Notes under the pieces: model-generated
Told to the model about the DNA's origin: nothing
The model's input: only the letters and a program-made list of their open reading frames with translations
Databases searched by the model: none
In this document: positions 1 through 14,356 of the stretch, in pieces
Numbering within the stretch: position 1 is the first letter of the stretch
How the letters are laid out: each line of letters opens with the position of its first letter
Made by a program: the position numbers and the translations under genes
DNA from: an uncultured delta proteobacterium
GTDB taxonomy: Bacteria > Desulfobacterota > Syntrophobacteria > Syntrophobacterales > Syntrophobacteraceae
NCBI GenBank assembly: GCA_963808625.1
Contig: CAWEHK010000019.1
Span: forward strand, 41,245 to 105,244
Direction of reading: 5' to 3'
DNA: 64,000 nucleotides

Positions 1-1375
1 ACCAGTACACGGCCACGCCGAAAGCCACGACACCGATCAGCACGTTCTGGATCATCTTGATCGTTGCCGCTACGTAGAGGGCCTTTTGACCCAAAAAGGC
101 GCCGGCCGCAGCCACGGCGCCAGTCGAATCGATGGTGCTGCCCATCCAGGCTCCGGCCAGGATCTCCGGCATTCCTACCAGCTTGGCGAACGCCGGCTGG
201 CCCACCATGCAGATCGCCGTGAAGACCATGGAAAGCCCAATGGCCAGCGTCAGCTCCTCTTTTTTGGCCCGGCAGGCCGCGGCGGTGGCGATGGCCGCCG
301 AGACGCCGCAGACCGACATATCGGCCGAAATGGTGATGTTCAGGGTCTTGGAAGGCATTTTGACGATCTTCTGGCCGAACCAGTAGGTCAGGATCAGGGT
401 GATCGGGGTGCAAATCCAGGCGATAAAGATGCCCGGTTTGCCGATGGCTAAAATCTTGTTGAAAAGGATTTCGGCACCGAGCAGAACGAGCCCGGTCTTG
501 ATGTAGAATTCGGTGCAGACCGCGGGCTGCATCCATTTGGGGGTGCCGACCGTGTTGCTGATGAGGAGGCCGAAGGCGATGGCCCACAGCGGAAAGCCGA
601 AGCCCCAGTATTTCATCAGGGCCTGGGTTTCGGCCATGTAGGCCAATATCGCAATAATGAAGACCGCCGGGAAGGCGATGACGAACCGGCTGAACGGGGT
701 GCCCATGATGGCCTTGCCGATGCCGAAGAACACGGCCAGGATGATGCACAACCCGATCAGATAGGGTATTCGGTTATAGGGTTTGACATTGAACTTGCTG
801 TCGGCTTTGGAGAAGGCGTCCTTAGCTTTCTGCCAGGCGTTGATCTCCTTCTCGGCTGCGGCGTTGAGATTTGGGTCCTTGAAGCCTGCTGCTGCAGCGG
901 CGGCCTGAGCGGTCTTGGCGCTTGCCAGCGCGGCTTCGGCAGCGGCCTTGGCTTTGTCCGCCGCCTCTTTAAAGGGCGCGCCCATGGCCTTGGCGGTTTC
1001 CTCGCTGCGGTAGAGGGCGTCTACCGGGTTGGTGTCCCAGTCACTGGGCGCGGCCAGGAAGTTCTGAATGGTCTTGGCGAAATCCTGGTTGGTTGCCCGA
1101 ACTCCGCGTTTGGCTGATGACGCATTATACCACTCGATCGTTTTGAAGGGCGCCTTGGCGGCCTCTTCCTTCATCGTCGCATTGTACTTGGGGATTTCGG
1201 CCGCTTTCTCCGGCGGTCGCGGCAGGTAGATGACCAGCCCGATGATGAGAAGCAAAAACCCCATCCAGACAGCCATCCAGTCTTCTTTCTTGTAAAGATC
1301 CTTAAGCGAGGTCTTGCCGCTTTCTATAACTACATAATCCGGTTCCGCTGGCGACGGTGTTTTGGTTTCTGCCAT
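1..1375 (-). CDS. Putative sulfate exporter family (YeiH/UPF0324) membrane transporter, truncated by window edge
   Basis: Manual translation from ATG at 1375 (RBS AAGGAGG upstream): MAETKTPS...EDWMAVWMG...EFYIKTGLVLLGAEILF...SVCGVSAAIA...IDSTGAVAAAG...KMIQN. Multi-TM protein with family motifs; runs off the left edge. Confidence 0.85.
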   Translation of the reverse strand, partial: MAETKTPSPAEPDYVVIESGKTSLKDLYKKEDWMAVWMGFLLLIIGLVIYLPRPPEKAAEIPKYNATMKEEAAKAPFKTIEWYNASSAKRGVRATNQDFAKTIQNFLAAPSDWDTNPVDALYRSEETAKAMGAPFKEAADKAKAAAEAALASAKTAQAAAAAAGFKDPNLNAAAEKEINAWQKAKDAFSKADSKFNVKPYNRIPYLIGLCIILAVFFGIGKAIMGTPFSRFVIAFPAVFIIAILAYMAETQALMKYWGFGFPLWAIAFGLLISNTVGTPKWMQPAVCTEFYIKTGLVLLGAEILFNKILAIGKPGIFIAWICTPITLILTYWFGQKIVKMPSKTLNITISADMSVCGVSAAIATAAACRAKKEELTLAIGLSMVFTAICMVGQPAFAKLVGMPEILAGAWMGSTIDSTGAVAAAGAFLGQKALYVAATIKMIQNVLIGVVAFGVAVYW

Positions 1376-1693: not shown

Positions 1694-1753
1694 CAAGCAT
1701 TTACGTGGTAAACTATCGCAAACTGAGCAGATTGTGTCAAGTTCGTGGTCATC

Positions 1754-2800
1754 TCACCGCTCGAATCTCTTGACGCAGGTAAGACAGGATTGATTCGGGT
1801 TTCCAATGGCCAGTCCTTCTCGAAACTGTCGGAACGCCTCACTCTCCCAGATCGCCAGCGGGTCCAGGGTGAGGACATTGCCGAAGATGCGGCGCCTGGG
1901 ATCTGGCCCGGCGGCTGGCAGTTTGAGATAGACACATGGGGATGCGGAACCGTCAGCGGCCACGAAAAGCGAACGGGCGATGTTTTCACGACAGCTCATA
2001 CCGGATGCGCTCGGGTCCGGCAGGCTCCAGTGGCATTCCATACCCAGGCGTCGAATTTCGGATGCCGTTTCCTGAAGAATGGAAGCCGCTGCCGCCAGCT
2101 TCCCGGGTTCATCGAGGCCGAAACCCTCGGGCTTCAATTCAGCGCTCGGAACATAGTCGAGGGTGCTGATCACCGCCGCGTGCACGCCGAGGCGCTGCAT
2201 CAGGGCCGGCAGACCGCGCACCGCTTCCATGTTCGAGGCCAGCATCAGGTAGGCGAGATGAATCTCCAGGTGCACTCCCTGGCGTGCGCGCCGGACGGCC
2301 TGGAGGAGGGATATTGCTTCACCTACCCTCTCGAAGTCTACTCCCTGACGGGAGGCGTTGGTTGCCGCACTGGTGCCGGCCAGCGAGAAGGCAATGATAT
2401 CCAGACCGCTTTCCACGATCTGCAGGGCCAGGTGTTCGTTCATGATCAGGCCGCAGGTGGTGGTGGACACGGCACTCCCGGTCTTGAGCGCCAGCGCGGC
2501 CATCTCGAAGAAGGCGGGATTGAGCAGCGGTTCTCCCCAACCCTGGAGATGCACGCGGCTTGAACGCCGCATCAAGGGCCAGAGGCGGGCGAAGGTTGCC
2601 ATGTCCATGTCTCGCCCCGGCCACTGCTCGTGCATGATCGTGTGGGGACAATAGCGGCAGCGGCCGGGACAGCGGGTCGAGACCTCCACCTGGAGGCAGT
2701 CCAGGAGGCGCCGAACCCCGAAAAGGCGTTCGCGAAGAGTCTCCCAGATCCCCGGTTCGCGGAATGATCGCTCGGAGGTTTTGTCCGATACTCGCTTCAT
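1754..2800 (-). CDS. Radical SAM protein with SPASM/twitch C-terminal domain
   Basis: CPGRCRYC (CxxxCxxC), LQGWGEPLL, C-terminal SCRE...DGSASPC...IFGNV...CLTC. Confidence 0.9.
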   Translation of the reverse strand: MKRVSDKTSERSFREPGIWETLRERLFGVRRLLDCLQVEVSTRCPGRCRYCPHTIMHEQWPGRDMDMATFARLWPLMRRSSRVHLQGWGEPLLNPAFFEMAALALKTGSAVSTTTCGLIMNEHLALQIVESGLDIIAFSLAGTSAATNASRQGVDFERVGEAISLLQAVRRARQGVHLEIHLAYLMLASNMEAVRGLPALMQRLGVHAAVISTLDYVPSAELKPEGFGLDEPGKLAAAASILQETASEIRRLGMECHWSLPDPSASGMSCRENIARSLFVAADGSASPCVYLKLPAAGPDPRRRIFGNVLTLDPLAIWESEAFRQFREGLAIGNPNQSCLTCVKRFER

Positions 2801-2814
2801 AACGAACTCACCGT

Positions 2815-2893
2815 GTCACCCCCGCATGCTTTTGGCGAGGGTCCAGGGACATAACAGTTGACCTGGATTCCCGCCAAAAGCATGCGGGTTGAC
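2815..2893. repeat. REP-like palindromic element (GTCA..CCCGCATG family)
   Basis: GTCACCCCCGCATGCTTTTGGCG...CGCCAAAAGCATGCGGGTTGAC inverted arms; related copies at 15542, 16304, 51911. Confidence 0.75.
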
Positions 2894-2937
2894 GCCTGGT
2901 AACGGTGGCCCTCTACTCCTTCACCCTGAATTAAGTT

Positions 2938-3782
2938 TCAGCGACCGAAAATGCTGGAGAGCCTTTGCAGCAGTCCCGGCCGAGCCGGTGCCCAGCTTAC
3001 CTCCACATACGGGAGGAAAGGAAGCGCTCCCCATTTACGTTTGAAGAAACCAACTCCGGTATTGATGCCCAGCCCAAGGTTCATGAGAGTCTGCCCGCGT
3101 TGATAAGCCTCTTCCAGAAGTCCCCCAAGCAGGAGATCGGTGCTGCCCGGTGGAGCCAGCCGGGGGTCCCGGAAGCAGAACATGAAGAAAGCGGTCCGGA
3201 AGGCACTGAAATCACCCACGACAAAAGCGGCCAGCTTGCCGTCGGCGAGTCGCCCGGAAAGCACCAGGCTGCCGGGAGAGGCCGCGAGGTAGTGGGGCAG
3301 ATGCTGAAAAACGTGTCGCGTTCCTGGCTCCAGATGGCGCTCGTCGAGGTAGCGCTGGACCAGCGCCAGGTGATCATCGCCCCATTGGTGTCCCCTCTCG
3401 ACGGTCAGCTCCCGACTCGCCCGGCGAATAAGGTTGCGCACCTTCTGGAGGAGGTAGAGGATGCGGCACCGGCAGGGAATAATAGCAGTCCTCGGTAACC
3501 TGGCTCTCCGCCCGGGCCTGGGGCGGTCTGGCCGGTCCGATGACGGTGAGATACGCAGGTCTCTAATTTTGAGCGCTTCACTGACAGCCTCGGCCATGGC
3601 TTCCGTATCCCGAGGGTCATGCAAAGGATAACCTACCAGCACCAGCTTCTTCTCCGAGGCAAAACCCACACAGTCTCCCACCAGCTCGGCTCTGTTCCCG
3701 AGACGGTACGAACGTACGGCAGAAGTTGTTCGGGGACCACCGCCTCAGCGGTTACTCGAGCCAGGAGATCCGGGCCGATCAT
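2938..3782 (-). CDS. GNAT/FemAB-like hypothetical protein (frameshifted in this assembly)
   Basis: ATG at 3782 overlaps the upstream stop (ATGA). MIGPDLLARVTAEAVVPEQ... continues via frameshift(s) into LVGYPL...SDLLL-like...MNLGLGINTGVGFFKRKWG, paralogous to the N-half of the upstream gene. Confidence 0.65.
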
Positions 3783-5470
3783 TTCGCCCTCCTGACCGTG
3801 AAGCCCGCCTGACTCAGCATGGGACGCAGATCGAGCAGGTGTGCCGATCCCACCAGTACCGCACAACGGCCCCGTTCCAGAAATGGGCGCATCCGTTCGA
3901 GGAAGACGGCGTCGCGGCGATTGATGACCCATTCGGTGCGGGTGGGAAACTCGATGCTGGTGCCCATCATGCGCTCCAGGTTCCCTCTCAGGTAGGCGCG
4001 TTCATTGCGTTTCAAATACCCGTGCCAGCGGGGGCACTGGCGAAAGAAATTGATAATGCGGGGGATCGGGATGCTCTCGAGGGTCTCGAGCTGCTCGGCG
4101 ATGGTCTCCATGCCCCGCACCGTCTTTCCCATCTCCCTAGCCAGGTGCCACGCCTCAAGATCTACCGAATAACGCCAGTCATGACGTGCCAGAAAGCTGG
4201 TCCAGAGCGAAAAAAAGGCCATCCAGGGGCGGGTTTCGGCGAGAAAATGACGCACATCCGGCGCGTTGGGAGTACTGAATCCCAGCAGCCGCGCCCAAAA
4301 ACCCTGTGGTCCACATACCACTCGCTCCAGACGACGGATCTCCTCCTCCGTCAGCAGTTCGATGAGCCGGGGGCTTCCTGCGGCTGGGCTTCGCCCCACC
4401 TCCGCCACTCGGTCAAGGCTCGCCTGATCGAGCGGCCCTTCGAAGAGAACCGTATCCACCCGTTCAAAGAGTTCGCGAAAGGAGGTTTCGAAGCTGCAGC
4501 AAAAGAAGTGCGCCGTTCCGCCAAGCCAGGAACGACTCTCGTCTTTTTCGACTTCCCAGAGCATGGCGAAGTGTCGCTGCGGGGGGAGGCTGGCCAGAAA
4601 CTCCCGCTTGGACATGGCTTCACCGGGCATGGCGCGCAACGCCCGCATGAACTCGTTCATCTCGGTACGGGCCTTAGCTTTTGCCTCCCAGGCCGCCATT
4701 TCATAGGGTAGCGATGGAGTCCCTCCCCACTTGGTCTTGAAGCGACGAATGCCATCGTTAACGCCGAGACCGAGATGCAGAAAATCCTTCTGCTCTCTTC
4801 TCGCCAGCTCGATCATTTTCAGAAAGAGCAGATCGGAAGCGTGAGGGGTATAATGGATACGGGAGTGAGCCCCGAGGAGATAGGTTAAAAAACAGCCGGG
4901 AGCCGTGTCCAGCAGCAGGCAGGCGGCGAGATGACCGCGCTCGTCCCAGGCATCGAGGAAGACCAGACCAGGAGCCCGGGAGATCACATGGTCGGTGCGC
5001 GCGTAGAGCTCGCGGACGTTAGGCGGCAGGGGCACGCGAGCCAGGAATTCGGCCCAAAGGCGGCGGTGCGCCGGGGTGAACTGCGCGCCCTCTTCCACTT
5101 GGAGCGAGGTCGCGGCCTGGGCCGCCTGGCGTTCAAGACGGGACGGTACAGGTATATCAGAAGGGAGGGTATAGTAGAAATCCTGATTAGTGCGGTAGTG
5201 CTGCAGGCGACTGGGAAGGGAGGGGCTGATCGCCCAACACCTCGTGGCCCGTGTCCGGGATAAGGCTTCGGCCAAGGCTTCGTCAAAACTTAGCGATGAA
5301 TCATCTCCCGAGAGCGGATAGCCTACCGCCAGCAGCCAGTCCTTGGCAGCAACAAAAAGGTAGGGACCCAGGAGGAAGGCCGAACCGTCCGACATGGCCT
5401 CCATAAAGGCCACGGAATGTTCGGGTACCGTCGCCTTTGCCAGGACGGCATTTATCTCGGAAGGATTCAT
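3779..5470 (-). CDS. Fusion: N-terminal GNAT/FemAB-like domain + C-terminal TraB/GumN (Tiki-like) domain
   Basis: N-half ASDLLF...LHLGLGVNDGIRRFKTKWGG; C-half SWLGGTAHF, VLFEGPLD, GMETIAEQL, RRDAVFLERM, VLVGSAHL match the TraB/GumN motif order. Start taken at MNPSE (5470). Confidence 0.75.
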   Translation of the reverse strand: MNPSEINAVLAKATVPEHSVAFMEAMSDGSAFLLGPYLFVAAKDWLLAVGYPLSGDDSSLSFDEALAEALSRTRATRCWAISPSLPSRLQHYRTNQDFYYTLPSDIPVPSRLERQAAQAATSLQVEEGAQFTPAHRRLWAEFLARVPLPPNVRELYARTDHVISRAPGLVFLDAWDERGHLAACLLLDTAPGCFLTYLLGAHSRIHYTPHASDLLFLKMIELARREQKDFLHLGLGVNDGIRRFKTKWGGTPSLPYEMAAWEAKAKARTEMNEFMRALRAMPGEAMSKREFLASLPPQRHFAMLWEVEKDESRSWLGGTAHFFCCSFETSFRELFERVDTVLFEGPLDQASLDRVAEVGRSPAAGSPRLIELLTEEEIRRLERVVCGPQGFWARLLGFSTPNAPDVRHFLAETRPWMAFFSLWTSFLARHDWRYSVDLEAWHLAREMGKTVRGMETIAEQLETLESIPIPRIINFFRQCPRWHGYLKRNERAYLRGNLERMMGTSIEFPTRTEWVINRRDAVFLERMRPFLERGRCAVLVGSAHLLDLRPMLSQAGFTVRRAK

Positions 5471-5625: not shown

Positions 5626-7840
5626 TTGACCATTACTCGGAATGAAGTGCTGTTTGGAGCCGACGCAACCTCGGGGATAGTGGCCGTAGAGCAGGTTTCC
5701 GGGAATCGAATGCGGCTTTTCAGGCGCGGGACGGATGGCCTGGTGCAGGAAGACGAGGCCTTCCGGCCCTTTATGGTATTGGAAAAAGAAGGGCTTCTCG
5801 ATGGCTTCAGGAAGCCCTTTACAGGCCACGCGCTCAGTTCCACCAATGCCTTTAAGTTCCTGGCTCTATTTGAGAATTGGGGAGATTGCGAGAGCGCCCG
5901 AGACCACCTGCGCAAGACCAGCGGGGAATCAGCCTCCTCCCCGACGGCACCCTACCTCTATCTGGCCGATCCCGTGCATCAGCACCTGCTGCTCACCGGC
6001 AAGACCCTCTTCAAGGGCCTGGCGTTCAAGGATATCCATCGTCTCGCCCTCGATATCGAAACCGCTTGTGCGCCGGGGTTTGAGTTTTCAAACCCTCAGA
6101 GAGAAGAGGATCGCATCCTCTCCATTGCCCTGATGGACAATCGGGGGTTCGCGGAAGTGCTGTTCGGCGGGGATATGACGGAAAAAGAGATGCTCCAGGC
6201 TTTGGGCGAGAGGATCATGGCCCTCGACCCGGACGTCCTGGAAGGGCACAACCTCTTCAATTTTGATCTCGAATATATCGTTGCCCGGGCCAGGATGCAT
6301 GGCGTTAAACTGCCCTGGGGACGCAACGGCAGTGAGCCCAGGATTCGTAAATCCCGCTTTACGGTAGCCGAGCGCATCATTGATTTTACCCGCATGGACA
6401 TCTTCGGCCGGCATGTCGTGGATACCATGTTTCTGCTGCAATATTACGATGTCACGGCCCGCGAGCTGGAGAGCTACGGGTTGAAATCCGCCGCGCTTCA
6501 CTTCGGCCTGGCCGATGAGGACCGGACTTATATCGATGGGGACAGGATTCAATGGGCTTATGAGCATGATCCGGAAGCCCTCAAGCGCTACAACCTGGAT
6601 GATGTGAGGGAAACCCTGGCGCTCTCCGAGCTTCTCGGGTATCCGTTTTTCCTGCAAGCGCAAATCTTCCCCTTTTCCTACCAGAATATTTTCGTGCGGG
6701 GCAATGCGACCAAGATCAACGCGCTGTTCCTGCGGGAGTATCTCAGGAGGCGGGCTTCCATCCCCAAGCCCATGGCCAGGGGAGATTTTGAAGGAGGCTA
6801 CACGGATGTCTTTGTCGAGGGCGTGGTGAAGAACGTGGTGCACTGCGACGTCGCATCACTTTACCCCTCGATCATGCTCTCTTTCAGCCTGAAGCCGGCA
6901 GGGGACAGCCTGGACATCTTCCTGCCCCTCCTCCGGGATTTGCGCGCCTTCCGCCTGGAAGCCAAGAGAAAAGGCCCATGAGGTCGCCTCACCCCACGAT
7001 CGGGACTATTACCAGGCACTCCAGCAGACCTTCAAGATCCTCATCAATTCCTTCTACGGTTACCTCGGGACGGCGCTGCATCATTTTTCCGATCCCGGTT
7101 TGGCGGCCGAAGTCACCCGCCTGGGACGGGAGCTTATCCGCAAGATGCTGGCGTGGCTGGAAGAAGAGGGGGCGACGCCGGTCGAGATCGACACCGACGG
7201 GATTTACTTTGTGCCGCCTCCCGGCGTGGTCACCGAAGAGCAGGCCGGGGCGCTGGTTGCGCGGCTTTCCCAGAGCCTTCCGGAAGGCATCGAGGTGGAG
7301 ATGGATGGGCGCTATGTCTCGATGTTCTCGTATAAGAAGAAAAACTACGCGCTGCTCGATGCGTCGGGAAACGTCACCATAAGAGGAAGCGGACTTCGTT
7401 CAAGGGGAATGGAAAAATACCTGCGGGAATTTCTTGCAGCCATGATTCGCCTGCTGCTCGAAGGGAGAGGAGAGGAAGTCAGTCAGCTCTACAAGGGCTT
7501 CGACGAGCGCCTGAAACAGCACCAGATGGACATTGCCTTGCTGGCAAAAACGGAGACCCTTACCGAAACTCCTGAGAACTATCAACTAAAAATCAAAGCC
7601 AAGAAGCGCAACCGGGCGGCGGCTTACGAGCTTGCCTTGAGCTCGGGACGAGATTTCCGCGCCGGCGATCAGGTCTCCTATTACGTGACCGGCAGCGACA
7701 AGAAAGTGCGCGTTTTTGAAAACTGCAAATTCGCTTCCAGCTACGATCCGACTCAACCGGATGAAAATATCGCCTATTATCAGGCCAAATTGCTTGAGCT
7801 GGTGAAGAAATTCCAGGATTTCCTGCCCCGGATGCCTTAG
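5626..7840 (+). CDS. polB: Family B DNA polymerase with 3'-5' exonuclease (one frameshift near 6975)
   Basis: ExoI DIET, ExoII GHNLFNFD, ExoIII YNLDD, motif A DVASLYPSI, motif B KILINSFYGYLG (frame of the 7100 ORF, upstream of its called start), motif C IDTDG, KKNY. Confidence 0.9.
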
Positions 7841-9401: not shown

Positions 9402-10896
9402 TCACTTCTTTGCCGCTTTCCTGGCTTCCAGCCAATCTTCAAGCTCCTTCAGAGTCTTGCTCAGGTGATAACGGCCATCGGCGAAAACTCCGTAGTCGCC
9501 ACCCCCCGCCATTGCCGACGTGAAGCGGATGTTATTAGCGTGAAAGAGCCACATATCGCTCCACAGTTTCTCGCTGAACTCATCAAAAGGATTCCCGCCC
9601 TTGTCGAGTCCGGCAGCCAGGCCGCGCTTCCAGATATCTTTCATGAGTTGGGTCCCGGCCAGCGTGGCCGCGTTGGTCTGTTCGATGGTGTTGAGAAAGC
9701 GCGACCAGTGGCCTTCCACCCAGGACTTGGCGTGACAGCGCTGACAACTGGCCTGCATCAGTTGGGCGGCGGCCGTTCGGTCCTGGGGGTTGAGGAGGAA
9801 ACTACTCGCGAAGCCACCCTCGAAATCGGTTGGCAGGGGCAGTCCGTCCTTGTTGCGGATTGCCGAGAGGTTAGCCTCCTTCGGATGAGGATGGGCATAT
9901 ATGAGCCCAAAGATACGCCAGGGCATTCGGTTCTTCACTTCATGAGTGCGCTCACTCACGACCTTGCCATCGCCGTCAACGAGAAGACTGATATGACAAG
10001 CGGCACAGGTCGGCGCCGTGAAGTCCTTGCCGATGCTCCAGGGTACATTCTTGAAATTCCATTCCGCCTGCTTGGCGGAAAAAATATTGCCATGCTTGCT
10101 CGCTTCATAAATCTTGTTTGCCGGAGTATCCGGGCCCACGTGGCATTCCTTGCAGGTGTAGGGTTTACGCGCCATCTCGATGGAGAAATCATGTCTTGTG
10201 TGGCAGGCTGTGCACGATCCCCGAGTGCCATCCAGATTGATGCGCCCGACACCCTGGTTGGGCCACCCGGAAATGATCGGAAATTCCATCTCGCCCATCT
10301 CCGTTTCGCGCGATTTTGTGCCGGTTACTTCAAGCTTGGTGCCGTGGCAGTAGAGGCAGGATTCAGCCTCGGTAGCGGCGTTGGCGGGCTTGAGGACGAT
10401 CTTCCCTTTCTCGAGCACCGGTGAGCCGTTGATCGAGAGCATGAGTTGCTGGTAGAGGCTGTTGTCAACCAGGTTGCCGTAGGCGTGAGCCATAAGGTTC
10501 TTGTCGAACTGCTGCGCCTCCTGGACGTGGCAGGTCGCGCAATCGGCGGGGCTCACCACAATATGGATATCCTGACCGTTATGGTCGAAGGTGTCCTTGT
10601 GCTCCTTGGCGCGCAGAGTATGGCATTCGGCACAGCCGATCGAGACATTCTTCAGTTCGTCGGGAACGTCCTGGACGGAAATCTTGCGACTCAGGCCCTG
10701 AACGGCCAGGGCTGCGGCCGGCGTCGTCGCCGCATGCCGACTTTTTTTCCAGCTTTCAACATGCCCCGGATGGGTCGTTGCGTGACAGCCGAGACATTCC
10801 TCGGTGGCACTGCTGGGAGTGACTTCGCCGTCCAGCTCCCCTCATCCCCGCAAAGGTGGCAATCAAAAAAACAAGGGCAACTGCTACTCGCTTCAT
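9402..10896 (-). CDS. Octaheme cytochrome c, hydroxylamine oxidoreductase (HAO/epsilon-Hao)-like; frameshift near 10835
   Basis: Signal peptide MKRVAVALVFLIATFAG from ATG 10896. Eight CxxCH: CLGCH, CAECH (read upstream of the called ORF), CATCH, CLYCH, CTACH, CKECH, CAACH, CQRCH. CH.RH.FS and Y..SKHG motifs. Confidence 0.85.
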
Positions 10897-11510: not shown

Positions 11511-11921
11511 ATGCAACCACTTTCCGGCGTTGGAACACTGTCTCCCTGGGAGCCGGGCATATTCTCCCTGACCGTCTACAGCATTCTCGTCCTGGTCTTT
11601 GTCGCATCCCAACTCTTTCTTGCGGCCTGGTTGGGGGAGAAGAAACCGGGCATCGAGAAAGCGAGACCCTATGAGTGCGGCGTCATCCCCACCGGCTCCG
11701 CCCGTCTGCGTTATCCCGTTCCTTTTTATCTGGTAGCCATTTTTTTCCTCATTTTTGACGTCGAGGGCGCTTATATTTTCACCTGGGCCGTTGTCTACCG
11801 GGACCTTGGCTGGTCGGGGTGGATGCAGATGTCCTTTTTTATCGTTTTGCTGCTCATCGGGCTCGTTTATCTCTGGAAAAAGGGAGGGCTTGATTGGAGG
11901 CCGGCTTACAAAACAAAGTAA
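11511..11921 (+). CDS. nuoA: NADH-quinone oxidoreductase subunit A
   Basis: [35 protein letters not shown]. Confidence 0.95.
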
Positions 11922-14356
11922 GCGACCGCTTCCTTGGGGTTGCGGATCTCGTCATCAACTGGTCCCGCCAGTACAGCCTCTGGCCGCTGTTTTTCGGGCT
12001 CTCGTGCTGTTTTGTGGAAGAGGCGACGGCTTTCACCTCCCGCTACGATATGGCCCGGTTCGGCGCGGAAGTGCTGCGTCCTTCCCCGCGCCAGGCGGAT
12101 CTCCTGATTACCTCCGGCACCATCTTCAAGAAGATTGCCCCGGTCGTCCTGCGCCTGTACGAACAGATGGCGGAACCCAAGTGGGTCATCTCCATGGGCT
12201 CCTGTTCCAACTGCGGCGGGATGTACGACGTCTACAGCGTAGTCCAGGGCATCGACCAGATTCTGCCGGTGGATGTCTACATCCCGGGATGTCCGCCAAG
12301 GCCCGAGGCGGTGCTTCAGGGGCTGGTGCTGCTGCAGGAAAAGATTGTTGCCACGGAGCGGCCGGCGCGGTCGGTTTTTCATCTCGGGGAGGGCGCGCAG
12401 GGGAGCCAGCGACCCATCTTGATCGACGGTCTGACGAAATCGCGCGATCCGCGTGGTCCGGGCATGCAGGGGACCGTAATCCGGGGAACTTCGGCCGTAC
12501 CACCCAAGTTCTGGGGCAGCCGCGCCGATGATATGTGGACCCCTCCCGCGCGCCGCATCGAGTTGAACGCGCACGACCAGTCTCTGGCGGCAACGCTCGA
12601 GCAAAGGTTTGGCGACGCCGTCCGGCAGGTCCCCCACACTTCCGACATGCTGACGTTCGAGGTGGAGCAGAGCCGTGCCAAGGAGGTATTGCGCGTGTTG
12701 AAGGCGGAAGTCTCACCACGGTTTTTGCGCCTCGATGACCTGACCGCGATCGATGAGTCCGCCCGCCGGGACCGCATGCCGCCGAAGGAATTGGCCGAGG
12801 CATTGACGGATATCGGGGAGGGGGGCACCCGCAAGCGGGTGGAGCGCCAGGTGTATCCGGACTTTACCCTTGTCTATCACCTCCTTTCTTTCGATGGGCC
12901 CGCTCGCCTCCGCCTGAAAGTGGGCCTGACGGGAGAAGATCCCGTTGCCGATTCGATCACGGACATCTGGCCGTCCGCCAACTGGTATGAACGGGAAGTC
13001 TTCGACCTCTTCGGGATACGCTTCGAGGGCCATCCGAACCTGCGCCGCCTGATCATGCCCCACGACTGGGACGGCCATCCCCTGCGCAAGAGCTATCCCG
13101 GCCGGGCTACCGCGATGCCTCCGTATACGCTCGACGACGCTCGGAAACACCAGCCGCTCGACGGCGGGGTTTACGCGAAGCAGGCCGCCGGCGAAGAACA
13201 GCTCGTCCTCAACATCGGCCCCTCCCATGTCAGCACCCATGGGTTGCTGCGCTACATCGTCTCGCTCAACGGGGAAGACATCACCGATCTTAACCTCGAT
13301 ATCGGCTACCATCACCGGGGTGTCGAAAAAATCGGCGAGCGCCAGACCTGGCACCAGTTTATCCCATATTGCGCCCGAGTGGACTACCTGGCGGGCGCGG
13401 CGAACGACCTCCCTTACGTCCTGGCGGTGGAGACCCTGGCGGACATCAAAGTGCCGGAGCGGGCGCAGGTGATCCGCGTGCTGCTCTCCGAGCTCTTTCG
13501 CCTGAGCAACCATCTCGTCTGGTTTGCCACCTACGCTCATGATGTGGGGGCGATGACGCCCAATTTCTACGCCTTCGCCGAGCGGGAAATGATTCTCGAT
13601 ATCGTTGAGCTCATCACCGGGGGCCGCCTGCATCCTTCCTGGTTCCGTCTGGGAGGCGTTGCCGCCGACTTGCCGGACGGCTGGAAAGAAGCGGTGGATG
13701 CGTTCGTCAAGATCTTCCCCGGGCGTCTTCAAGAATATGAAAATCTGATCAGGAAGAACCCCATCTTTAAGGCTCGAACCCAGGGGATCGGGCGTATTTC
13801 CCTTGAAGACGCCATGGACTGGGGTGTTACCGGCCCGAATTTGCGGGCGTGCGGGCTGGAATGGGACTTGCGCAAGAAGTTCCCCTACTCGGGTTACGAG
13901 AACTTCGAGTTCGATATCCCAACGGCCTACCGAGGGGGATTGCTACGCGCGCTATCTCGTGAGAGTCGAAGAAATGCGCCAGAGCCTGAGGATCATTGCA
14001 CAGGCCGCCGCGAATATGCCGCCGGGCCGCCATGTGACCGACGATTACCGATACGTGATTCCGGAGCGCAAGGATATGCTCAAGCATATCGAAAGCCTCA
14101 TCCATCATTTCATCAATGTGACGGGCGGGCCCAAAATTCCCCGAGGCGAGGCCTATCGGTCGTGCGAAATCCCGCGCGGCGAGCAGGGTTACTACGTGGT
14201 CAGCGACGGCCTCGGCTACGCCTACCGCATGCGCATCCGCGGCCCCGGATTTGCCAACGTGCAGGTCATGCCCCTGCTGGCAACGGGGGAGAGCATCGCC
14301 GACCTCATTGCGATCATCGGTCGGTTGACTATATCTTGCCGGATATCGATCGGTGA
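11894..14356 (+). CDS. nuoBCD: Fused NADH-quinone oxidoreductase subunit B/C/D (compensating frameshifts near 13930 and 14320)
   Basis: NuoB GLSCC..E, SPRQAD, MGSC, PGCPPRP; NuoC ANWYERE.FDLFG, HPLRK; NuoD GPSH.STHG, GYHHRG.EK, EIPRGE.G (alternate frame), ends DIDR. Confidence 0.92.

Follow-up and report, generated by a model that had tools for sequence, protein, structure and literature searches.

Synthases and hydrolases that act as pairs on lipids have been described for MprF, which goes together with VirJ or AhyD, and for ErdS, which goes together with ErdH (PMC6103681, PMC7334510). In this class of transferases, tRNA is reported to be bound by a basic helix lying between the two GNAT domains (PMC6103681, PMC7334510, PMC12945691). 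The present analysis concerns a three-gene unit located on contig CAWEHK010000019.1 of assembly GCA_963808625.1, from an uncultured delta proteobacterium of the Syntrophobacteraceae, within a stretch of 64,000 nucleotides hereafter called the window. This unit combines two tandem-GNAT proteins (GNAT-A and GNAT-B), a TraB/PrgY/GumN domain and a radical S-adenosylmethionine (SAM) enzyme. Known superfamilies account for each of these parts, and there are precedents for pairing a synthase with a hydrolase. No description of this gene combination was found in the full-text literature, subscription papers being mostly outside reach, and an earlier note made from the DNA alone had likewise known of no described system.

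The unit covers positions 1754 to 5470 of the window and its three genes all lie on the minus strand, in the co-directional arrangement that the earlier note had seen. Gene 1 (3779-5470, minus strand, 563 amino acids) joins GNAT-A, a tandem GNAT (4685-5470, residues 1-262), through a flexible linker to the TraB domain (3788-4564, residues 303-561). Gene 2 (2938-3782, minus strand) is coupled to gene 1 by the expected ATGA overlap at 3779-3782 and encodes GNAT-B, a protein of about 281 amino acids in relatives. Gene 3 (1754-2800, minus strand) encodes the radical SAM protein of 348 amino acids. The fusion proposed for gene 1 was confirmed by a Pfam scan, in which its TraB half matched PF01963 (110.3 versus 26.8 bits, E 2e-31), and by its GNAT-like N-terminal half, which folds like FemX, MprF and Sbb17. 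Two other assignments had to be amended. Gene 2 is a paralogue of GNAT-A, as proposed (26% identity over 267 columns), but it is not an intact open reading frame in this assembly, where three single-base indels interrupt it. Gene 3 is a radical SAM enzyme (PF04055) that also matches the SPASM model PF13186, but its C-terminal domain, with four conserved cysteines, is of the Twitch type.

A search with gene 1 retrieved 43 related loci, and the closest titled relatives (74-81% identity) included metagenome-assembled genomes of Syntrophobacteraceae. Gene 2 follows gene 1 in 38 of the 43 loci, plus one that is cut just after the overlap, and 35 of these 39 display an ATGA or GTGA overlap. Gene 3 comes directly next in 25 of the 36 loci having more than 700 bases downstream. 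Genes 2 and 3 even form a single frame of 631 amino acids in two loci (L023 and L024), and GNAT-radical SAM fusions were found in three further clusters at 50% identity, two of which are named Desulfovibrionaceae. Among 16 genomes without an adjacent gene 3 at the locus, four hold an orthologue elsewhere (58-84% identity) and six a sister form (37-41%). The trio, which the earlier note would have abandoned had it been confined to this genome, therefore co-occurs across many families.

At the scale of the phylum, the GNAT profile matched 38 of 401 genomes (about 9%), with two matches in 30 of them, three in four and one in the last four; among these single matches, two were at contig ends, one was partial and one was a deletion-like fusion. 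The second GNAT was kept elsewhere in two of the three genomes where it was not adjacent. At L105 (5453-7429, plus strand), a single frame runs from GNAT-A through the initial third of TraB into the final two thirds of the radical SAM protein, GNAT-B being lost; it looks like the relic of an in-frame deletion. Since TraB is a standalone gene in many families, where the order is GNAT-A, TraB, GNAT-B and radical SAM, the unit consists of four parts. Of 201 genomes, 20 contain the TraB subfamily (E 1e-29 or better), and these are exactly the 20 with the GNATs; only weak generic TraB matches were obtained in four others of the 201. Phylogenetic trees, for which FastTree only was used, placed GNAT-A in one clade (support 99). 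In 26 of the 38 genomes, the unit has a radical SAM gene as its immediate neighbour: nine of these genes belong to the window's clade (motif LQGWGEP), 16 to a second clade (LEGWGES) and one to a GGGE type, and the two GWGE clades are separately supported. With fixed thresholds, GWGE-type radical SAM proteins were found in 34 of the 38 genomes with the module versus 35 of the 363 others, counts that include kin, are not independent and for which no p-value is claimed. By position, the radical SAM gene is thus accessory.

In GNAT-A, residues E17, H135, D213, F244-K245 and K247-W248 were invariant in the 85 rows of alignment A1. Both GNATs share an F-K-x-K-W motif, D213 (D216 in GNAT-B) and an N-terminal P-E motif, and F247-K248 is kept in at least 85% of 30 GNAT-B rows. 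Sequence matches to described families were weak for the GNATs, pointing to LPG_synthase_C and arginyltransferase. The Pfam scan of gene 2 gave Acetyltransf_6 (28.9 bits, cut-off 22) and a weak LPG_synthase_C match; PF09924 reached 14.6 versus 27.5 bits and was passed by one of 25 family members scanned. Searches of PDB sequences with the GNAT and gene 1 profiles returned nothing significant. Structure comparison was based on AlphaFold models with a mean pLDDT (confidence score) of 92 for an intact gene 2 orthologue and 83 for gene 1, whose linker (residues 265-295) was below 50. For both GNAT models, the top nine structural matches (VIA) were all aminoacyl-tRNA transferases, apart from an uncharacterised protein that shares their fold. 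GNAT-B matched Sbb17 with Z 19.3 (root-mean-square deviation 3.7, 247 aligned residues), 2hqy with 19.1, FemX with 18.9 and MprF with 18.1, other GNATs being at 14.1 or lower; GNAT-A gave values of 16.9-19.8 (FemX 19.8, Sbb17 19.3), other GNATs being at 15.0 or lower. The range of the class for both models (Sbb17, 2hqy, FemX, MprF and FemA) was Z 16.8-19.8, GNATs outside the tRNA-dependent class stood at least 1.9 Z units under every listed member of it, and Foldseek agreed. In these models, both GNAT folds are therefore closer to the aminoacyl-tRNA-dependent class than to acyl-CoA-dependent GNATs. The helix between the GNAT domains, residues 113-125 in the GNAT-B model, has a mean net charge of +4.3 in GNAT-B (30 rows) and a weaker one of +2.6 in GNAT-A (34 rows), which makes GNAT-B the likelier tRNA-binding subunit. 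From what is established for known families, the donor is most likely an aminoacyl-tRNA.

The TraB domain conserves H321, E344, D437, E455, R519-D520 and H544 in all 18 rows of a diverse alignment (A6) and in 84-85 of the 85 rows of A1. These residues form a predicted hydrolase active site, and we take them to correspond to those of Tiki proteins. No signal peptide or membrane helix was seen in the model of this domain. Few substrates of bacterial TraB/GumN proteins are known. Enzymes of the Tiki superfamily cut esters and peptides by means of a His-Glu pair, and the superfamily is described as including metal-dependent and metal-independent members (PMC6254334).

SPASM domains are defined by seven or eight conserved C-terminal cysteines that bind two auxiliary clusters. 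In gene 3, next to the CxxxCxxC motif (C44, C48 and C51) and the LQGWGEP motif, only four C-terminal cysteines (C270, C289, C339 and C342) were conserved, in 71 of 71 aligned rows, and the domain is hence of the Twitch type with one auxiliary cluster. The best solved match was BtrN (E 1e-15), DesII and BlsE being also among the best solved radical SAM matches. BtrN is a dehydrogenase whose substrate is an aminocyclitol and whose auxiliary cluster is of the Cys4 type (PMC10337720). The part of the gene 3 protein that precedes residue 38 is too short for a peptide-recognition domain, and the Twitch, BtrN-like character of the enzyme weakens a peptide-maturase reading. The earlier note had considered that the enzyme might fall within the Ahb heme synthesis or tungsten-cofactor maturase families. 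Its scores were far below the cut-offs of these NCBIfam models, with 106 bits for TIGR04317 (cut-off 380), 111 for TIGR04311 (400) and at most 41 for Ahb/NirJ models (500-650; 31 against 500 for one Ahb model), or about a quarter of the thresholds of the two TIGR models and less than one tenth of those of the Ahb models. Other GWGE-type radical SAM proteins scanned obtained 92-188 bits with TIGR04317. Genuine members of TIGR04317 are encoded by genes of their own (in G119, G082 and G124), several of them beside an aldehyde ferredoxin oxidoreductase, and they form another clade, behind a branch with a support of 100. Gene 3 is thus neither a tungsten-cofactor maturase nor an Ahb enzyme.

The reading that we favour, tentatively and as possible rather than probable, is that the unit aminoacylates, oxidises and de-aminoacylates a lipid head group or a lipid-linked sugar. 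The unit would be located on the inner side of the membrane, where GNAT-A and GNAT-B, forming a heterodimer, would take an amino acid from aminoacyl-tRNA and attach it to a hydroxyl or an amine of this acceptor. The radical SAM enzyme would oxidise a C-H of the same head group in a BtrN-like reaction. Turnover or deprotection would fall to the TraB domain, by hydrolysis of the aminoacyl bond. GNAT-A may add a second residue, as in the pairs FemA/FemB and DhpH/DhpK, or may position TraB. On the basis of known families, we infer that TraB is the matching hydrolase and that the radical SAM enzyme provides oxidative tailoring of the same molecule. This agrees with the transfer, cleave and radical-modify module of the earlier note, with the donor refined to a likely aminoacyl-tRNA and with four parts instead of three. 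The gene content, its conservation, the fusions and the catalytic-type residues kept in relatives are direct observations, and the heterodimer and the three-dimensional detail of the folds are predictions. The least certain part is the lipid acceptor, for which the arguments are the parallel with MprF/VirJ and ErdS/ErdH and the amphipathic tails of the GNATs. Somewhat more doubtful is the wider proposal that, in anaerobes, an undescribed membrane lipid bearing an amino acid, or an exported metabolite, is made and turned over by a flippase-free heterodimeric transferase that uses aminoacyl-tRNA, acting together with TraB as de-aminoacylase and with the Twitch radical SAM enzyme.

Two lines of evidence used for this lipid reading carry their own reservations. 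A complex model of the window's GNAT-A (residues 1-265) with the GNAT-B of L027 scored 0.78 versus 0.21 for the best control, with a contact agreement of at least 18% and a partner pLDDT of at least 85; of 157 solved complexes, 116 attain the mark applied, as do two of 215 mismatched pairs. This supports a predicted heterodimer. The three runs gave 0.79, 0.78 and 0.00, the two proteins modelled together were from different organisms, and a pair of paralogues may pass such a test by likeness to solved structures. The C-terminus of GNAT-B is a basic amphipathic helix, a feature present in 19 of 34 GNAT-B orthologues and seven of 15 archaeal-type homologues versus 41 of 867 genome proteins (4.7%), by a criterion that was chosen after seeing the sequences. 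It was rarer in diverse sets, namely six of 26 GNAT-B, four of 20 standalone GNAT-A and nine of 54 cluster representatives.

These reservations weigh against the proposed lipid pathway, and so do several other observations. A shared fold alone does not establish function: Sbb17, the best single match, has a soluble amino sugar as its acceptor, and as FemX matches equally well and MprF nearly so, the kind of acceptor cannot be read from the fold. The likeness of the F-K motif near the C-terminus of the GNATs to the catalytic Lys305 of FemX and Phe328-Lys329 of DhpH (PMC12945691), in itself an argument for the tRNA-dependent reading, was judged by motif position and not by residue-level superposition. 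No flippase or transmembrane domain was detected in any of the three proteins by Pfam scan or in the models, and no lipid-biosynthesis gene was found as a conserved neighbour. No radical SAM gene lies beside the unit in 12 of the 38 genomes, and 35 genomes that lack the GNATs contain GWGE-type radical SAM genes, frequently with YeiH as a neighbour; gene 3 may thus have a substrate of its own. Finally, nine archaeal-type metagenome loci have a single GNAT and, at the locus, neither an adjacent TraB nor a GWGE radical SAM gene.

The same enzyme logic could apply to a soluble small molecule, such as an amino sugar, a cyclitol, a nucleoside or a sulfur-containing metabolite. The GNATs would then add one or two residues, the radical SAM enzyme would oxidise or decarboxylate the core, TraB would deprotect it and YeiH would export or import it, the models being the protect/deprotect route of blasticidin S or dehydrophos. 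Sbb17, which aminoacylates streptothrisamine, is the top match, and the presence of BtrN, DesII and BlsE among the solved relatives of gene 3 points the same way. Published precedents are the leucylation by BlsK that is later removed (PMC12710036) and the two tRNA-dependent GNATs, DhpH and DhpK, of one pathway (PMC12945691). A long-form YeiH was found in 29 of the 38 genomes with the module versus 36 of the 363 others and is adjacent in several families. However, scaffold-building or resistance genes are not conserved nearby, YeiH apparently has its own promoter and tracks the radical SAM family more than the GNATs, and the amphipathic tails point to the membrane; we regard a soluble acceptor as unlikely. 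The unit could also modify a protein or cofactor in the maturation of a sulfur- or metal-handling enzyme, TraB cutting a protein in a Tiki-like manner, the GNATs adding residues to the new N-terminus or to a side chain and the radical SAM enzyme oxidising a residue or cofactor. Tiki-family domains are described as including endopeptidases (PMC6254334), the nearest NCBIfam families of gene 3 are tungsten-cofactor and metalloenzyme maturases, the GNATs have their weak arginyltransferase match, and the neighbours in some lineages are aldehyde ferredoxin oxidoreductase, molybdopterin oxidoreductase, YeeE/YedE, TusA and TauE. Seven of the nine archaeal-type GNATs also lie downstream of dsrK or dsrC-dsrMK, but this link is absent in the two other loci, which are at the same chromosomal site, and most of these loci are from close kin. 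As the protein-tagging L/F-transferase matched with Z 11.8 only, far under the lipid, cell-wall and small-molecule transferases, as no target gene is conserved across families and as true tungsten maturases are separate genes, a role in protein or cofactor maturation appears distinctly improbable.

Two further explanations are very unlikely, to about the same degree. A peptidoglycan stem or another envelope polymer precursor could be the acceptor, as for FemABX and MurMN, with residues added sequentially by the GNAT pair and trimmed by TraB, the radical SAM gene being a loosely linked neighbour. FemX ranks first or nearly so among the structural matches (Z 18.9-19.8), the tandem paralogues recall FemA/FemB and lipid II is membrane-bound. 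Homologues nevertheless occur among proteins named as archaeal (Caldarchaeales and Nitrososphaerota), groups that are not known to make peptidoglycan. Genes for cell wall synthesis (mur) or cell division are not conserved neighbours, with a single MurJ at L117, and the repeated fusions of GNAT-B with the radical SAM protein argue that the latter is coupled to the unit. As for a pathway for a ribosomally synthesised and post-translationally modified peptide with a distant precursor, it would find a parallel in some graspetide loci, where Tiki/TraB peptidases and SPASM enzymes are reported together (PMC8939145). The related possibility of acyl-CoA-dependent acetyltransferases without a tRNA role would fit Acetyltransf_6, the best Pfam match of gene 2. 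Among 1711 open reading frames of 15-120 amino acids in 149 flanks within 800 bases of the unit, however, none was conserved across families, in line with the earlier note, to which no precursor peptide was evident. The Twitch domain of gene 3, its lack of peptide-recognition space and the lower Z values of GNATs outside the tRNA-dependent class also speak against either possibility.

The state of gene 2 in this assembly deserves separate consideration. Only 49 codons are open from its ATG at 3782, and homology continues in two other frames to a stop at 2938; DNA alignment to three relatives located the single-base indels near 3684, 3564 and 3447. The dN/dS of gene 2 versus the three relatives was 0.13-0.23, in comparison with 0.15-0.19 for genes 1 and 3. 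When 39 orthologues from a genome of the same genus were mapped to this assembly, five fell on split frames, with seven breaks in 44 kb; the adjoining DNA polymerase gene and a radical SAM paralogue on the same contig are also split. A compensating base is present at all three break sites in related-strain contigs from public runs. With purifying selection like that of its neighbours, other split orthologues and these compensating bases, the breaks are, judging from the sequence comparisons, most likely assembly errors. Counting against this are their density (three per 0.85 kb versus an assembly mean of 0.16 per kb) and the public runs, among which no same-strain run was found, the best share being 0.12. 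A true pseudogene is disfavoured by the low dN/dS, the other split genes and the compensating bases. Programmed frameshifting was rejected since 34 of the 35 other complete orthologues are single intact frames, that of L057 being split. The split family-B DNA polymerase gene (5626-7840, plus strand) is in two frames that part near 6970-6980; it is intact in two relatives (745-764 amino acids) and probably contains another assembly indel here. The radical SAM paralogue is a second GWGE protein, of the LEGWGE clade, and its frameshifted gene is located outside the window (G000:C19:17433-18449, plus strand).

The gap of 137 bases between genes 2 and 3 contains a 27-bp inverted repeat (2821-2888). 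It belongs to a palindromic family of about 75 bp found in 114 places on 46 of the 54 contigs of the assembly, is absent in relatives, one of whose contigs has seven bases in its place, and had no Rfam match near the gathering score. A regulatory RNA of the system was therefore rejected: this is a dispersed genomic repeat, presumably REP-like (repetitive extragenic palindromic), and not a part of the unit. Just after gene 3, a sigma-70-like promoter pattern (1712-1740, minus strand; TTGACA-17-GATAGT with an extended TG) suggests that the downstream YeiH gene may have its own promoter, although this is a consensus match only, with two sites found versus 1.1 expected in shuffles. No conserved DNA motif was seen by eye in 43 upstream sequences.

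This YeiH gene (1-1375, minus strand) encodes a long-form transporter of the YeiH/PSE family with a large soluble N-terminal insertion and runs off the window. Past the window (the whole set being at G000:C19:37820-42682), it is followed by genes for a small membrane protein, an NF038143-like protein (frameshifted), a TerC-like protein and a conserved protein of 272 amino acids. Of all genes around the module, long YeiH was the one met most often, frequently with NF038143 and a small membrane protein, and it also recurs next to the GWGE radical SAM family. It stands beside sister-clade radical SAM genes in 12 of 20 loci, of which 17 are from genomes without the GNAT pair and three from genomes having the pair elsewhere, and thus tracks the radical SAM family. 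The YeiH set found beside GWGE radical SAM genes in many GNAT-free genomes may be an undescribed system of its own. A molybdate phenotype was reported for the PSE transporter DVU0543 of D. vulgaris (PMC10102598). Other neighbours were lineage-specific (YeeE/YedE, GlyA, M20 peptidases, aldehyde ferredoxin oxidoreductase and heme genes), genes at these loci having been called with a rough script that missed some. In one lineage, the module is immediately followed (L098:3226-5471, minus strand) by genes encoding a genuine DUF2156/LPG_synthase_C protein, a small GNAT and a protein with a metallo-beta-lactamase fold. TIGR04311/04317-like radical SAM genes at L164, L178 and L184 adjoin arsenic-resistance-like frames, which look ArsC-, Acr3- and permease-like from their N-terminal sequences. 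Further along the window, the translations suggest a multiheme cytochrome c-like frame with several CxxCH motifs (9402-10559, minus strand) and nuoA/nuoBCD-like NADH dehydrogenase frames (11511-14356, plus strand), as well as, outside it, a cluster resembling a propanediol-utilisation microcompartment (G000:C19:22675-35993).

The GNAT family comprises 529 clusters at 50% identity and reaches proteins named Thermodesulfovibrio, Nitrospirota, Anaerolineales, Bacillota and archaea (Caldarchaeales, Nitrososphaerota). One GNAT-B protein compared with 72,556 plasmid records had no match. In the archaeal-type contigs, a bc-type complex is embedded in the dsr cluster: L195 (760-6816), L196, L197, L199, L201 and L202 display dsrC, Rieske, cytochrome b, dsrM and dsrK genes, then the single GNAT.

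This is thus a large uncharacterised family of predicted aminoacyl-tRNA transferases, whose records, among those seen, are named 'hypothetical protein' or after a partner domain, and which is tied tightly to one TraB subfamily and to the GWGE-motif radical SAM group. Paired transferases, an exclusive TraB partner and a recurrent radical SAM enzyme make a well-defined, testable pathway, and this context raises the direct question of whether TraB proteins remove the aminoacyl group installed by their partner. Named carriers include Desulfovibrionaceae, Desulfurivibrio and Desulfobulbus, in which genetics and lipidomics look feasible. If the proposal is correct, bacterial TraB/GumN proteins would gain a defined substrate class, an aminoacylated head group would be subject to radical tailoring and tRNA-dependent aminoacylation of this type would extend to archaea; the predicted attachment, removal and oxidation on the same target would be a new branch of tRNA-dependent chemistry.

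Compared with MprF-type aminoacyl-phosphatidylglycerol synthases (aaPGS) with VirJ/AhyD and with the fungal ErdS and ErdH, the unit has in common the tandem-GNAT (DUF2156-like) fold, the basic inter-domain helix and a genetically tied, dedicated hydrolase. It differs by its two divergent transferase subunits, the absence of a flippase or synthetase domain, its radical SAM partner and scores below the PF09924 cut-off; its hydrolase has a TraB/Tiki fold, whereas that of the MprF and ErdS systems is an alpha/beta-hydrolase. With FemABX and MurMN, the GNATs share the fold (Z 17-20) and the arrangement as a paralogue pair, and have an F-K motif that resembles theirs by position, but they are shorter (about 265-283 amino acids), have 8-13% identity in structural alignments, are fused or linked to TraB and radical SAM proteins, have archaeal homologues and lack a cell-wall gene context. 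The transferases of natural products (Orf11/Sbb17/Sba18, DhpH/DhpK and BlsK) are stand-alone tandem GNATs of similar size (286 amino acids for Sbb17), and BlsE, BlsK and PepN of blasticidin S follow a logic of aminoacylation, modification and deprotection with a radical SAM enzyme and a peptidase. In contrast to these, no biosynthetic cluster surrounds the unit, the peptidase is a co-encoded TraB and the family is found in anaerobic Desulfobacterota, Nitrospirota, Bacillota and archaea. Gene 3 resembles BtrN, its best but only distant PDB match, by its CxxxCxxC motif and one Cys4 auxiliary site, and although TIGR04317 and TIGR04311 are its best NCBIfam matches, it belongs to a distinct GWGE-motif tree group. 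The TraB domain passes PF01963 and keeps the His and Glu residues of catalytic type like other TraB/PrgY/GumN proteins, but it represents a distinct cytoplasmic subfamily that, in the genomes searched, was found only together with the GNAT pair.

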